Source: a virus
Strand: one strand, 5' to 3'
Length of the DNA stretch: 64,000 nt
Virus record (IMG/VR): IMGVR_UViG_3300045988_074321
Location: 1 to 64,000 of that record
The notes under the pieces were generated by a model. It saw nothing but the letters and a program-made list of their open reading frames with translations, was not told where the DNA came from and did not search any database. Below, in pieces: positions 1,940 through 22,499 of this stretch. A program made the position numbers and the translations under genes. The stretch's first letter is position 1. Every line of letters starts with the position of its first letter.

Positions 1940-2011
1940 TTGCCCTACTAGGATTCGAACCCAGACTAAATGATTTAGAGTCATCTGTGCTGACCATTAC
2001 ACCATAGGGCA
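1940..2011 (-). tRNA. suppressor tRNA, anticodon CUA (reads UAG); Gln-like backbone
   Basis: hand-folded: acceptor tgcccta/tagggca, D-stem gtg/cac, anticodon stem gatga/tcatt (one G-U), loop CTCTAAA, T-arm ctggg-TTCGAAT-cctag; architecture near-identical to tRNA-Gln(TTG) at 15386. Confidence 0.7.
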
Positions 2012-2149
2012 GTAACTTATTTCTCTTTTAGAGATTTATTTTCTGCTGCCAATTTCTCTAGTTCTTTTCTTAATTGTTCATTTTCGTGAAATAAAGCCTG
2101 CATAGTAGCGTTGATATTAGCTAATAGTATTCTCATTTGAGCAACCTAT

Positions 2150-2467
2150 TCATACATAAGCTTTCAGTTGTTCAATTCTCTTTTTAGCTATATCTGACAA
2201 TGCCATTTTGAATTTAGCAATACCAGCTCTTACTGTTTCTAACTTGCCGCTTTCTAAGCATTCTTGTATTTTATGAACTTCAAGCTCTCCTAGATATTCG
2301 CATACATCTATAAATAAATCATCATCTAGAGATTCTAAATATTTCTGGAATTGGTCTACCTCTTCATTAGCTAGACAGCTTTCTTCCTTCTATCTTTCAT
2401 AAGATATTAATAAGAACAAAGAATCGTCGGTAGATTCGGACTTAATAGTTAGCCCATTACCAGACAT
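2150..2467 (-). CDS. small helical hypothetical protein with one in-frame TAG (codon at 2390-2392), probably read as Gln
   Basis: 105-codon frame ATG(2467)..TGA(2150) interrupted only by TAG; downstream 60 codons have no ATG/GTG/TTG start, protein-like composition; lies 130 bp from tRNA(CUA). Confidence 0.45.
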
Positions 2468-2875
2468 ATAATATTCTTGATTCGTATTAATTGCCTCAAC
2501 TAGCTATTTAAACTAGTCCTAATTTAACAATGTTTCTAAGTCTGTAATCATAATTGTTTTCTTTTTAGTTATATACAACAATAACCTCCGAAAAGTTAAA
2601 CGCAAAGTTAAAAAATTCTAATTCAAATATTATACATATTTTATATATTAAGGGGAAAGCCGGTACAGGTACTTTATATAAATAGCCCCCTGGGGTTATT
2701 ATAAATTCCGACTTTTATATTTGGAGGGCAATTACCTAGATTCCAAAAATTCATAGAGTGAGTGTAGTGGCGGTCCACCACTACGTTAGACCCCCCTGGG
2801 GTTCGTAGTGGAAAATAAATATCCATATATATAATCCCTAACCATATAAGAGTAATAATTATAAATTTTATAACA

Positions 2876-3322
2876 ATGGCAACAGAAAGAAACAGCCGAG
2901 AAAAGGGTGAAGCACTCGCAGCGGCACAGGGTACACAAATCAAGGATTTTGCAGCAGCAGGAAAAACTAATTTACCACCTACGGAACTTGCAAACGTGGA
3001 AGTAGGGGAAGAGTTCACAATTCCCAATGACTACAAAATCTATGAACGTGAATTTAACGGTAACAAATATCAGTTTGTTGTTACCAAAGAAGGAAAATTC
3101 TTTTACGTTTCATGGCTCACACGTGGAGCAAAGCCCAAAGACGGGGGAGATTTTGTAAGACCTAAAGGTACAGTAATCGAAAAGTTTTACAAAAATCCTA
3201 ATGCCTCTTACGATGAGGCATTTAAGGGCATCACTGGGAAACCTATGATAGTAAAAGAATTTACCAAAGTTGAAGGTGAAAACTTTACCACAAAGGTGGC
3301 AACCATCGACTTTGTAAAATAG
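2876..3322 (+). CDS. hypothetical protein, paralog A of 3956..4414
   Basis: ORF track; clear paralogy to 3956..4414 (shared MATE.N.R, AAAQG, TIP.D.KI, LTRGA.P.DG.DFVRP.GTV, DEAFK); hairpin terminator follows. Confidence 0.7.
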   Translation: MATERNSREKGEALAAAQGTQIKDFAAAGKTNLPPTELANVEVGEEFTIPNDYKIYEREFNGNKYQFVVTKEGKFFYVSWLTRGAKPKDGGDFVRPKGTVIEKFYKNPNASYDEAFKGITGKPMIVKEFTKVEGENFTTKVATIDFVK

Positions 3323-3331
3323 TTTAACATT

Positions 3332-3354
3332 GGGTAGGGGTGACAGACCTACCC
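3332..3354 (+). terminator. hairpin gggtagg-N9-cctaccc followed by TATAAATTT
   Basis: 7-bp GC-rich stem immediately after TAG stop of 2876..3322. Confidence 0.5.
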
Positions 3355-3370
3355 TATAAATTTAAACATT

Positions 3371-3637
3371 ATGACAAAAGAATACGTTGAAGAAAGATAT
3401 AACCTATTATTTGAACTTTATGGGGTTCAATCTCGTGGTTGGTCAATGTTGCATGAGCAATTTAATAGATACGTGTTTTGCCCAGATAACCGCAAATCAT
3501 TAATAGCGGAATATTTAGTTTGGGAAGACTTTGTAGAAGACGCAAAGAAATTCAATGTTCCTTATTATATGGGAATTGATAACTTTCTGAAAGAATACAA
3601 AAACGCTGTTTATTCATGCTTAACTAACTTACAATAA
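3371..3637 (+). CDS. hypothetical protein
   Basis: ORF track. Confidence 0.5.
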   Translation: MTKEYVEERYNLLFELYGVQSRGWSMLHEQFNRYVFCPDNRKSLIAEYLVWEDFVEDAKKFNVPYYMGIDNFLKEYKNAVYSCLTNLQ

Positions 3638-3676
3638 TATAAAGTTGCGCACGACACGAATTAAGTGCATAAAACT

Positions 3677-3844
3677 ATGTTAGAAAAAATAATCAAAGGA
3701 GTTTACAAAGCAAAGTTACTCAAAGCAAGGCTTTGCGATGTAAAAATCATCGTTTGGGGTGATGGCACACCTAAAACTATTGAGCAAATCAGCTATAAAG
3801 AATATGCCGTTATCAAACCATATTTAATTAAAGAGGGAGAATAA
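3677..3844 (+). CDS. small hypothetical protein (55 aa)
   Basis: own translation MLEKIIKGVYKAKLLKARL...; followed by hairpin agagggaga/tctccctct 3832-3853. Confidence 0.3.
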   Translation: MLEKIIKGVYKAKLLKARLCDVKIIVWGDGTPKTIEQISYKEYAVIKPYLIKEGE

Positions 3845-3955
3845 TCTCCCTCTATTCATAATTAATATAAAGGTATAAATAGCCTGTATACAGGCCCCAA
3901 CATTACCCGAGTGAACAATAAATGTATAATTACTAACAAAAAAAATTATTAGATT

Positions 3956-20788: not shown

Positions 20789-20909
20789 TACCTTTATCCC
20801 AGTTTAGAGCTTAGCTCAAATAGTGAATAATAGTAGCTATTGGTTAAAACGAGGTGGAGTGCCAGACGAAAGACTGGAATTAACATAGTTTAACTTTGAA
20901 TCTCCGACT

Positions 20910-21254
20910 ATGCGGAGTATTATTATGGCAGAATTGATTTTCTTAGCTAATGGAAAATGCGACTTGAAGTTCCACGCTCATCCCAAGAATTTCAAAAGGG
21001 TTGAGAAGTTCAACTACAAAAAGAACTTTTTCAAGGTTTACGTTGACCGAAACGACAGCGTTTACGAGATAACTCGCTGCGAGGTGGTTACATGGAAAAC
21101 CATAGAGAAAGGCAAGAAGAAATTTAACGTCCCTGACGAGGTGAAAGAAACTCGTGATGCTCACTTGTTTGACAAAATCAAGGGGAATCCGTTCAAAATC
21201 GCTATTACTAAGGTAGCTGGCGAGATTGATATGCAGGAGCTGTTATCTGAGTAA
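20910..21254 (+). CDS. hypothetical protein
   Basis: ORF track; hairpin ggagag/ctctcc 21263-21284 follows. Confidence 0.5.
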   Translation: MRSIIMAELIFLANGKCDLKFHAHPKNFKRVEKFNYKKNFFKVYVDRNDSVYEITRCEVVTWKTIEKGKKKFNVPDEVKETRDAHLFDKIKGNPFKIAITKVAGEIDMQELLSE

Positions 21255-21288
21255 TTCGTTTAGGAGAGTATCGTATAACTCTCCTTAT

Positions 21289-21363
21289 GCAGATGTGGTG
21301 TTAATGGTTTGAGCACGTCAGACTTCCAATCTGAAGGGGAGAGTTCGAGTCTCTCTATCTGCA
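21289..21363 (+). tRNA. tRNA-Gly (TCC)
   Basis: acceptor gcagatg/tatctgc, anticodon stem tcaga/tctga, loop CTTCCAA, T-arm gagag-TTCGAGT-ctctc. Confidence 0.8.
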
Positions 21364-21368
21364 CATTT

Positions 21369-21440
21369 GTAGGTATAGCACAACGGTTAGTGCATCGGCT
21401 TGCCATGCCGAGGATGTGAGTTCGATTCTCATTACCTACT
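21369..21440 (+). tRNA. tRNA-Gly (GCC)
   Basis: acceptor gtaggta/tacctac, D gcac/gtgc, anticodon stem tcggc/gccga, loop TTGCCAT. Confidence 0.8.
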
Positions 21441-21455
21441 CAAAATTTAAGTTTT

Positions 21456-21680
21456 ATGAAAATAAAGTGTACAGTATGTAATAAAGAATTTTATTATGGA
21501 GACCATAACTCTCCAATGTTTATTGATGAGGTTTGGAACAAGATAATAAATTACTTTAAGCTAACCAATTTTGAAAAAGAAGCTGCAAAGAAATTCTCCT
21601 CTTATTACAAAGGGGAGGTAAAGATTATTATCCAGACCACCATGTGTTTATCTGTAGCGAATGTGCGGAGAAGGCTCTAG
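21456..21680 (+). CDS. small Cys-containing hypothetical protein
   Basis: ORF track. Confidence 0.4.
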   Translation: MKIKCTVCNKEFYYGDHNSPMFIDEVWNKIINYFKLTNFEKEAAKKFSSYYKGEVKIIIQTTMCLSVANVRRRL

Positions 21681-21757
21681 GTAGGGAAATAACTGATAAG
21701 GATATTAATGATTCATTATTTAATATCCCATTTAGAGAGAAGTACTTTAAATCTTAA

Positions 21758-21842
21758 TATCCGTGTGGGTGAATGGTTTAGCCATCAGTCTGCAAAACTG
21801 AAAAGAGAAATCTTTAATGAGGGTTCGAATCCCTCCACGGAT
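21758..21842 (+). tRNA. type II (long variable arm, Ser-like D-arm) tRNA with anticodon GCA (Cys codons)
   Basis: acceptor atccgtg/cacggat, anticodon stem tcagt/actga, loop CTGCAAA, 17-nt variable arm with internal stem, T-arm gaggg-TTCGAAT-ccctc; D-arm nearly identical to tRNA-Ser(GCT) at 14899. Confidence 0.55.
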
Positions 21843-21863
21843 TCTAATTTTAAATTTAAAAAT

Positions 21864-22499
21864 ATGGCATATATTTATTGCATTACAAATTTAATTAATA
21901 GCAAGCGATACGTAGGAAAAACTACTACTTCTATAGAAGAGCGCTGGAAGGAACATTGTTATGACTTTTAGAAAGAAAGATGCAACAAAAGACCTTTATA
22001 TGATGCCATGAATAAGTATGGTGTTGAGAACTTTATGATAGAGGAATTGGAATATGTAGATAGTAACTCTGAATTATCTGAAAGAGAAATCTATTGGATA
22101 AAAGAGCTAGGAACTTATGGTTCTAATGGGTACAATGCCTCTAAAGGAGGAGATGGCACTATTCTATACAATCATAGTGAAATTGTAGAATTAGCTAGAT
22201 TGGGATATACTAGTTCTTAGATACAAGAAAAAATAGGGTGCTGTAAAGACACTATTTACAAAGTTTTGAAGGCAAATAATATAAAAATTAGAAAAAGTAA
22301 CGCAAAGTTAATTGCTTAGTATGACTTAGCAGGTAATTTTATACAGGTATTCTTTGGTTCCAGAGAAGCTTAGGAATGGTTAATTAATAACGGAATTACT
22401 GACAATAAATCTGCATAGAGTCATATTATAGGATGCTGTAAGAATAAAACCAAATCATAGTATGGCTATATTTGGAAATATCTTCCAGAGCCTATTTAA
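21864..22499 (+). CDS. GIY-YIG homing endonuclease with C-terminal HTH/DNA-binding repeats; 6 in-frame TAG codons (21969, 22218, 22317, 22371, 22416, 22458) read as sense
   Basis: MAYIYCITNLINSKRYVGKT..RW..H + NKYGVENF..EREIYWIKELGT..GYN aligns with I-TevI catalytic domain across the TAG; downstream YDLAGNFIQVFFGSREA-Q-EWLINNGI...YGYIWKY typical HE DNA-binding tail; track splits it into 21708..21971 and 22008..22220; true stop TAA 22497. Confidence 0.65.

Follow-up and report, generated by a model that had tools for sequence, protein, structure and literature searches.

The 64,000-nucleotide stretch analyzed here (the window; positions 1 to 64,000 of IMG/VR virus record IMGVR_UViG_3300045988_074321) comes from a crAss-like phage that is common in the human gut and covers its early half, with replication genes and a transfer RNA (tRNA) array. 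The best explanation of its coding pattern, held with good confidence, is that the codon TAG has two readings in this phage: the replication genes are free of internal TAG, and the late genes that begin at the left edge of the window use it heavily as a sense codon. Two putative homing-endonuclease genes, a PD-(D/E)XK-like gene and a GIY-YIG gene, lie directly behind tRNA genes in the early block and are TAG-rich. The amber recoding is of a known type; the phage is a further case of a code switch already described, and the current picture of phage recoding is unchanged.

A preliminary description of this stretch had reported three genes (a helical open reading frame [ORF] and the two endonuclease genes) interrupted by TAG at ten positions, together with a cognate tRNA with a CUA anticodon. 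Translation reproduces all ten TAG codons and confirms that all three frames are free of TAA and TGA, and the tRNA is found by both ARAGORN and Rfam. The inventory was incomplete, as two TAG-containing genes (51–242 and 239–631) and a tRNA with a UUA anticodon had been missed, the helical ORF had been drawn too short, and about eight of the 102 ORFs on the plus strand are themselves ended by TAG.

TAG usage in the early and late gene blocks

A codon-usage scan of the whole window with TAG as a sense codon finds internal TAG in five genes only, three at the left edge and two, the nuclease genes, within the long rightwards-oriented (plus) block. All 16 interruptions of these genes are TAG, with no TAA, no TGA and no frameshift. 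If nonsense types followed triplet abundance, ten TAG codons in ten interruptions would be expected by chance with p ~3e-6, and a frame of 212 codons without TAA or TGA has a chance probability of ~1e-5 at the off-frame stop frequency of the window. The features at the left edge and the plus block are as follows.

51–242, plus strand: 63-amino acid gene with one in-frame TAG (189); matches a code-15 gene call at 3277–3468 in the related contig L017
239–631, plus strand: 130-amino acid gene with two in-frame TAG codons (362 and 584); profile match to PHROG_15610 ("protease") at 1e-31
1939–2011, minus strand: suppressor tRNA with anticodon CUA (ARAGORN; Rfam tRNA model, 66.3 bits)
2017–2135, minus strand: small ORF without TAG between the helical protein gene and tRNA(CUA), read from the sequence; a 46-amino acid gene call in L017
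2150–2551, minus strand: helical protein gene of 133 amino acids with four in-frame TAG codons and a TGA stop, the first gene of the minus block (frame and strain comparison)
2876–64000, plus strand: early/middle block compatible with the standard code, containing 102 ORFs, 25 tRNAs and a transfer-messenger RNA (tmRNA)

Codon use follows the two blocks strictly. Outside the two endonuclease genes, the 102 ORFs of the plus block contain 478 CAA or CAG codons and no internal TAG, in agreement with the earlier statement that most genes of the window are intact in the standard code; these ORFs end in TAA (62), TGA (32) or TAG (8; ~8%). In the late block, by contrast, about half of the glutamine (Gln, Q) codons are TAG.

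The late block begins just left of the window and runs leftwards on the window's minus strand, as seen in near-identical contigs. A protein encoded at the left end of the window is found on many gut-metagenome contigs (80–106 kb) that overlap window positions 48–11300 at 90–99.9% identity and extend past the left edge; one of these, L004, is 99.9% identical over positions 48–6149. Positions 1–47 align to none of six related contigs, the match beginning at 48. Contigs of relatives reach ~170–190 kb, and one phage protein is indexed in 3786 blocks of a public collection. A megablast comparison of window positions 1–22500 with annotated phages returned just short unannotated fragments and tRNA matches and no close annotated relative, and a look-up of the protein encoded at the right end of the window gave no match.

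Read in the standard code, the leftward continuation is shredded into ORFs of 40–190 amino acids. With TAG as sense, the overlapping contigs encode a terminase-like protein of 793 amino acids (15–19 TAG codons) and a portal of 747–748 amino acids (27–34 TAG codons), both without internal TAA or TGA, and further genes are restored as well. Opal and ochre recoding are rejected, since the left flank gains no long ORFs when TGA or TAA is treated as sense and all called genes are free of internal TAA and TGA. In L017, a 169-kb contig with genes called in code 15, 15 late genes contain 131 TAG and 113 CAA or CAG codons, TAG making up 54% of the Gln codons; none of the 15 ends in TAG and none has an internal TAA or TGA. 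A reverse-transcriptase gene (RVT_1) is located after the structural genes of this contig. The portal has weak matches to portals of Flavobacterium and crAss-like phages, and a tblastn search with it returned just unannotated contigs at 55–64% identity and distant portal proteins.

In its heavy use of TAG as sense this is an ordinary phage of the code 15 type, with the late structural block as the principal group of recoded genes. The proposal that a subset of genes is recoded rather than the genome as in code 15 finds no support in this comparison; recoding looked selective because the late block, except for its edge, lies outside the window.

Amino acid assignment of TAG and the suppressor tRNA

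By sequence comparison, TAG is a synonym of CAA and CAG and is predicted to be read as Gln, as in code 15. Among strains, codon differences that involve TAG in four late ORFs are exchanges between TAG and CAA or CAG in 159 of 166 alignment cells and of another kind in 7, a test that is independent of anyone's gene calls. The 34 TAG columns of the portal have Q in 87% of homologue cells. At the three TAG sites of the PD-(D/E)XK protein Q is present in 71, 120 and 111 of 120 homologues, and at the first four sites of the GIY-YIG protein in 50, 107, 120 and 43 of 120; the background frequency of Q in those proteins is 2.6–8%.

ARAGORN predicts 26 tRNAs in the window, one of which has a CUA anticodon. 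This tRNA is 100% identical across six related contigs and is situated in the minus-strand block, 3′ of two small ORFs, where it and the helical ORF form the head of the recoded late block. Its nearest relative in the window is tRNA-Gln(UUG), at 71% identity and with U1-A72, the D-arm and G10 in common, so that it is probably of the Gln type, an assignment that identity weakly favours.

The helical ORF was previously placed at 2150–2467 on the minus strand, with a single TAG (2392–2390). It probably starts at 2551 instead, because other strains lack a conserved ATG at 2467, whereas the frame continues open upstream of it and is conserved there at the protein level. At a nucleotide divergence of 16% between strains the frame is still open; the TAG at 2392 is a conserved codon, and L017 has a matching code-15 gene call of 133 amino acids. 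All three genes of the preliminary description had been said to end at TAA, which is not so for this one with its TGA stop.

Predicted homing endonuclease genes and other features of the early block

The two TAG-containing nuclease genes of the plus block and the elements associated with them are as follows.

8114–8575, plus strand: PD-(D/E)XK homing-endonuclease-like gene (PF11645, I-Ssp6803I-like; Pfam, PDB) with three TAG codons (8147, 8279 and 8492)
8566–8603: imperfect palindrome overlapping the stop codon of the PD-(D/E)XK gene, with 19-nucleotide (nt) arms (8566–8584 and 8585–8603) that are 84% complementary
21442–22537, plus strand: strain-variable cassette of a 74-amino acid ORF, an 86-nt tRNA-Cys and the GIY-YIG gene (contig comparison)
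21864–22499, plus strand: GIY-YIG homing-endonuclease gene with an I-TevI-like catalytic domain (Pfam, PHROG, PDB) and six TAG codons (21969, 22218, 22317, 22371, 22416 and 22458)

Homology runs through the TAG codons of both genes, as had been claimed. In the PD-(D/E)XK protein, PF11645 (PDDEXK_5) matches residues 9–136 at 2e-23 across the TAG positions, and the best PDB match is I-Ssp6803I (2OST; 2.7e-4). The catalytic motif D...Q-V-K is intact only with TAG-56 read as Gln, the site at which all 120 homologues have Q. The gene is present with the same three TAG codons in six independent metagenome contigs, none of which offers an empty site, and it is 100% identical in strains whose flanks are 90–92% identical. 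It starts 18 nt after a tRNA-Lys(UUU) gene that ends at 8095, and a slot 18–21 nt after tRNA-Lys(UUU) is used in three phage lineages (window 8022–8113; L023 3910–4000; L025 3906–4000). The identity above that of the flanks and the shared slot suggest that the gene may have spread, and its position suggests a target or homing site in or beside the tRNA-Lys(UUU) gene. A 75%-identical homologue in another phage has TAG at the same three sites. One endonuclease homologue, on a 384-kb contig, contains no TAG, and neither do the genes checked in the stretch where it lies. The hairpin previously placed directly behind the gene corresponds to a real palindrome, although this is imperfect and overlaps the stop codon.

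The GIY-YIG protein matches PF01541 over residues 1–91 (6e-13) and the homing-endonuclease family PHROG_314 over residues 1–206 (4e-31), and its best PDB match is the I-TevI catalytic domain (1MK0; 1.4e-9). Matches of its C-terminus to HTH_23, HTH_28 and NUMOD1 are at E-values of 0.004–0.01 only, below the Pfam cut-offs. The gene starts 19 nt after tRNA-Cys. The 1.1-kb cassette is absent from nine of ten related contigs, which have ~280 nt in its place, and is partly deleted in the tenth; in L008 the replacement stretch contains tRNA-Tyr(AUA) and tRNA-Cys. The tRNA-Cys of the cassette (21759–21844, plus strand) is unusually long at 86 nt, and the allele in L008 (6537–6619) comprises a tRNA with the rare anticodon AUA (Tyr according to ARAGORN) and a 76-nt tRNA-Cys. 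Homologues of the GIY-YIG gene on three other contigs, from TAG-recoded phages, are also located in tRNA arrays and contain 2, 7 and 2 TAG codons; the large genes beside these endonuclease homologues are TAG-free, with one neighbour having a single TAG. In the two endonuclease genes of the window TAG accounts for 9 of 11 Gln codons, and for 23 of 41 when homologues are pooled with them. In clusters drawn at 90% identity, the two endonucleases are grouped with many other proteins, one cluster having 191 members and the other 267.

Two HNH-type genes of the same tRNA array, at 16412–17068 and 26308–26859 on the plus strand, have no in-frame TAG. The HNH motif of the first was seen by eye; the second has an HNH_2 match at 1.4e-4 and is present in only some related contigs. 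The recoded genes had been characterized as chiefly nucleases or selfish elements next to tRNAs, a description that fits the two plus-block genes but neither the three of five TAG-bearing genes at the left edge nor the TAG-free HNH genes.

Both folds have precedents among tRNA-associated endonucleases: SegB, of the GIY-YIG type, is encoded among the clustered tRNA genes of phage T4, and I-Ssp6803I is the PD-(D/E)XK homing endonuclease of a tRNA-fMet intron. The genes described here have the same two folds (PDB 1MK0 and 2OST) and the same association with tRNA genes, and the cassette and its adjacent tRNA are swapped between strains as expected from co-conversion. They differ in that SegB and I-Ssp6803I are encoded in the standard code, and homing is predicted here from the sequence. 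An Rfam scan of the window found no intron.

Products of the plus block include a DnaB-like helicase, a primase, an SNF2/ResIII helicase, an anaerobic ribonucleotide reductase (NrdD), a dUTPase, enzymes of nicotinamide adenine dinucleotide (NAD) salvage and membrane proteins. NrdD is ~70% identical to NrdD of crAss-like phages of roughly 100 kb. Auxiliary genes at 38405–39955, 60758–61312, 35269–36285, 12863–14836 and 36723–37550 make up a set encoding NAMPT-like and cytidylyltransferase-like (NMNAT-type) NAD-salvage enzymes, an OmpA-like outer-membrane protein and two SPFH/Band-7 proteins. Between the minus and plus blocks lies a divergent intergenic region (2552–2875) with GC-rich hairpins (e.g. 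2764–2784), and the cumulative GC skew has its minimum at ~2–4 kb; replication may start in this region, or it may contain divergent promoters. A promoter and terminator scan of positions 1800–3000 gave nothing above shuffled expectation. An intergenic site of ~50 nt (5990–6045, plus strand) is 96–100% identical to unannotated sites in many ~100-kb crAss-like phages, including cr113_1, cr115_1, cr53_1 and cr118_1, and positions 5991–6149 are kept as an isolated conserved island in L002 and L006; folding of 5985–6170 gave no significant structure.

The left part of the plus block contains a second tRNA of suppressor type.

5196–5266, plus strand: tRNA of the ochre-suppressor type, with a canonical cloverleaf and the anticodon UUA (ARAGORN; Rfam, 57.3 bits)

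This tRNA is strain-variable, and among contigs L001–L006 only L004 and L006 align over its position. No called gene of the window or of the related loci contains an in-frame TAA, which is the main terminator; by wobble the UUA tRNA might also read UAG. A RAGATH-14 RNA (RF03145; 156.6 bits, above the gathering score) is located at 4963–5169 on the plus strand, 27 nt 5′ of the UUA tRNA and inside a strongly strain-variable region (2796–6138). The tmRNA (RF00023, 62.6 bits) is at 25529–26093 on the plus strand, just before tRNA-Ile, and is 565 nt long compared with a model of 374 positions. ARAGORN makes no tmRNA call in the window but does so in a related phage array (L027, 5567–5982; tag peptide AEVTVLMAA*). 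As this phage suppresses a stop codon, its tmRNA could serve to rescue ribosomes that have read past the TAG stops of host messages.

Readings of the TAG pattern and relation to known phages

Under the favoured explanation, and following the published model, the early genes would be translated with the standard code of the host. The tRNA(CUA) would then build up, charged by the host glutaminyl-tRNA synthetase like the Escherichia coli supE tRNA, and TAG-bearing genes would be completed. The endonuclease genes are probably co-transcribed with the tRNA array, since starts 18–19 nt after tRNA genes leave no room for promoters of their own. Their in-frame TAG codons would confine endonuclease synthesis to the suppression phase; with a TAG share that matches that of late genes, the proteins would be made only under suppression and would thus be late-like whatever the timing of transcription.

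Several observations weigh against this explanation or parts of it. The temporal switch is inferred from codon distribution together with the literature. The tRNA(CUA) gene is located in the minus block, 3′ of a TAG-containing ORF and outside the plus-strand array, so its early expression is not evident. It is 71% identical to tRNA-Gln and 69% identical to tRNA-Thr, a slim margin, and because this identity signal is weak the Gln assignment rests on codon exchange instead. Counts of Q at TAG sites taken from database proteins are partly circular, many of these proteins having been called in code 15; a non-circular check against PDB aligns TAG-56 of the PD-(D/E)XK protein with the Q of the QVK motif in I-Ssp6803I (2OST). 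The two endonuclease genes and the late genes are statistically indistinguishable in TAG share (p=0.12; p=0.87 when homologues are pooled with the endonuclease genes), which gives no pointer to special selection for TAG in endonucleases. The HNH-type nucleases of the array lack TAG, so TAG-gating is no general rule for selfish genes here. The delay of the endonucleases could have been selected, or it could reflect tolerated drift between CAA or CAG and TAG in dispensable genes.

The selective version of this idea is an adaptive safety lock, in which the endonuclease TAG codons were selected so that the nuclease is untranslated until late in infection or wherever the suppressor tRNA is absent; early replication and the processing of tRNA-array transcripts would be protected. 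This was the core idea of the preliminary description, and we regard it as possible but somewhat doubtful. TAG supplies 9 of the 11 Gln codons of the two genes but 0 of 478 in the block around them, the PD-(D/E)XK gene has its three TAG codons in the same places as the 75%-identical homologue of another phage, and the distance of 18–19 nt from the tRNAs leaves no room for separate transcriptional control; I-TevI of T4 is also delayed to the late phase, by translational control. The same argument has been published for Agate phages, in which an early gene contains a group I intron endonuclease rich in TGA (bioRxiv 10.1101/2021.08.26.457843). However, ordinary late genes do not have a significantly lower TAG share, homologues of the GIY-YIG gene range from 2 to 7 TAG codons at shifting positions, HNH endonuclease-like genes of the same array do without TAG, and neutral exchange between CAA or CAG and TAG in genes not needed early would give the same picture. 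A broader proposal, that free-standing homing endonucleases of tRNA arrays use a reassigned stop codon as a time-lock, with transcription early and cleavage and homing late, is more tentative still and on the whole unlikely. As part of it, the TAG content of an endonuclease would follow the code of the phage invaded, from none on the stretch of the 384-kb contig to 2–7 in TAG-recoded phages, and in its widest version the strain-variable UUA tRNA and the phage tmRNA would belong to a deliberate rework of termination in the infected cell.

It is improbable that a uniform code 15 applies, with TAG meaning Gln throughout infection, no switch, and early genes that merely avoid the codon. The TAG "terminators" of the plus block would then be sense codons with the true stop following, and the eight TAG-ended ORFs do meet TAA or TGA within 2–22 codons, so that read-through would be harmless; the phage tRNA could also exist from the first minutes of infection. 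These back-up stops are, however, no closer than those behind TAA or TGA stops (57% of such controls also have one within 11 codons), and unusually close back-up stops were rejected as a feature of TAG-ended early genes. A TAG share of 0 of 478 early and 54% late would be difficult to account for if early genes did not have to be readable before the suppressor is there, and late genes are never TAG-ended, as opposed to 8% of early ORFs. That the three originally reported genes are decaying pseudogenes, or their TAG codons sequencing or assembly errors, is effectively refuted, as the preliminary description had argued in taking the TAG codons as suppressor-dependent sense codons. Homing-endonuclease genes do often decay, and these genes are short and in variable regions, but every one of the 16 interruptions is TAG, the same TAG codons are found in at least six independent assemblies, and the proteins form the large clusters noted above. 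The TAG codons also coincide with Q residues that do not vary, among them that of the catalytic QVK motif, and the terminase and portal of the same phage require TAG read-through.

Late-gene-limited recoding in crAss-like phages has been described by Yutin 2021 (PMC7886860) and in the Borges 2021 preprint (bioRxiv 10.1101/2021.08.26.457843), and TAG was shown by proteomics to encode Gln (code 15) in other crAss-like phages (Peters et al. 2022, PMC9523058). Block-wise amber recoding, suppressor tRNAs at a distance from the genes that are recoded, and differences between close strains in their homing endonucleases have likewise been reported (PMC7886860; PMC12386605), as has a genome that encodes a TAA-suppressor tRNA but does not reassign TAA (Yutin 2021, PMC7886860). 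The present phage shares with late-recoded crAss-like phages a tRNA(CUA), exchange between TAG and CAA or CAG, terminase, portal and structural genes full of TAG, standard-code replication genes, code-split blocks, a human gut source and low GC content; there is no essential difference, the code here being read from sequence.

The amber-suppressing Zeta crAss-like phages ctHMy13, ctoVY1, cthgQ11 and 3717_85572 have 24–27 tRNAs (PMC12386605, Table 1). Common features are a length of 169–191 kb (here that of the contigs with the closest portal homologues), a GC content of ~35%, 24–27 tRNAs beside genes of nucleic-acid metabolism, a CTA suppressor tRNA, a reverse-transcriptase gene next to the structural genes (RVT_1 in L017) and many homing endonucleases that differ between close strains. 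This is an indirect resemblance in size, tRNA block, suppressor and reverse transcriptase, and not a clade placement.

The suggested regulatory or safety use of recoding is not a new mode and is anticipated by Borges et al., who described an endonuclease rich in recoded codons inside an early gene and made the same timing argument (bioRxiv 10.1101/2021.08.26.457843). As in that intron endonuclease of Agate phages, a recoded stop codon occurs here in homing endonucleases among early standard-code genes, which would be made only after the switch; the Agate case uses TGA, whereas here the codon is TAG and the genes are free-standing, tRNA-adjacent and of two other families. The modest extension is that free-standing endonucleases of tRNA arrays, with two other folds, show the recoded-stop feature, and that the codon is TAG.

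For annotation, this phage needs a two-code gene caller, as under code 11 the structural genes and several small ones are broken into pieces. The phage offers a clean case of a single codon, TAG, that seemingly has two uses in one genome. If the TAG codons of the endonuclease genes are adaptive, they would provide a simple, testable case of a selfish element that times itself via the code switch of its phage.

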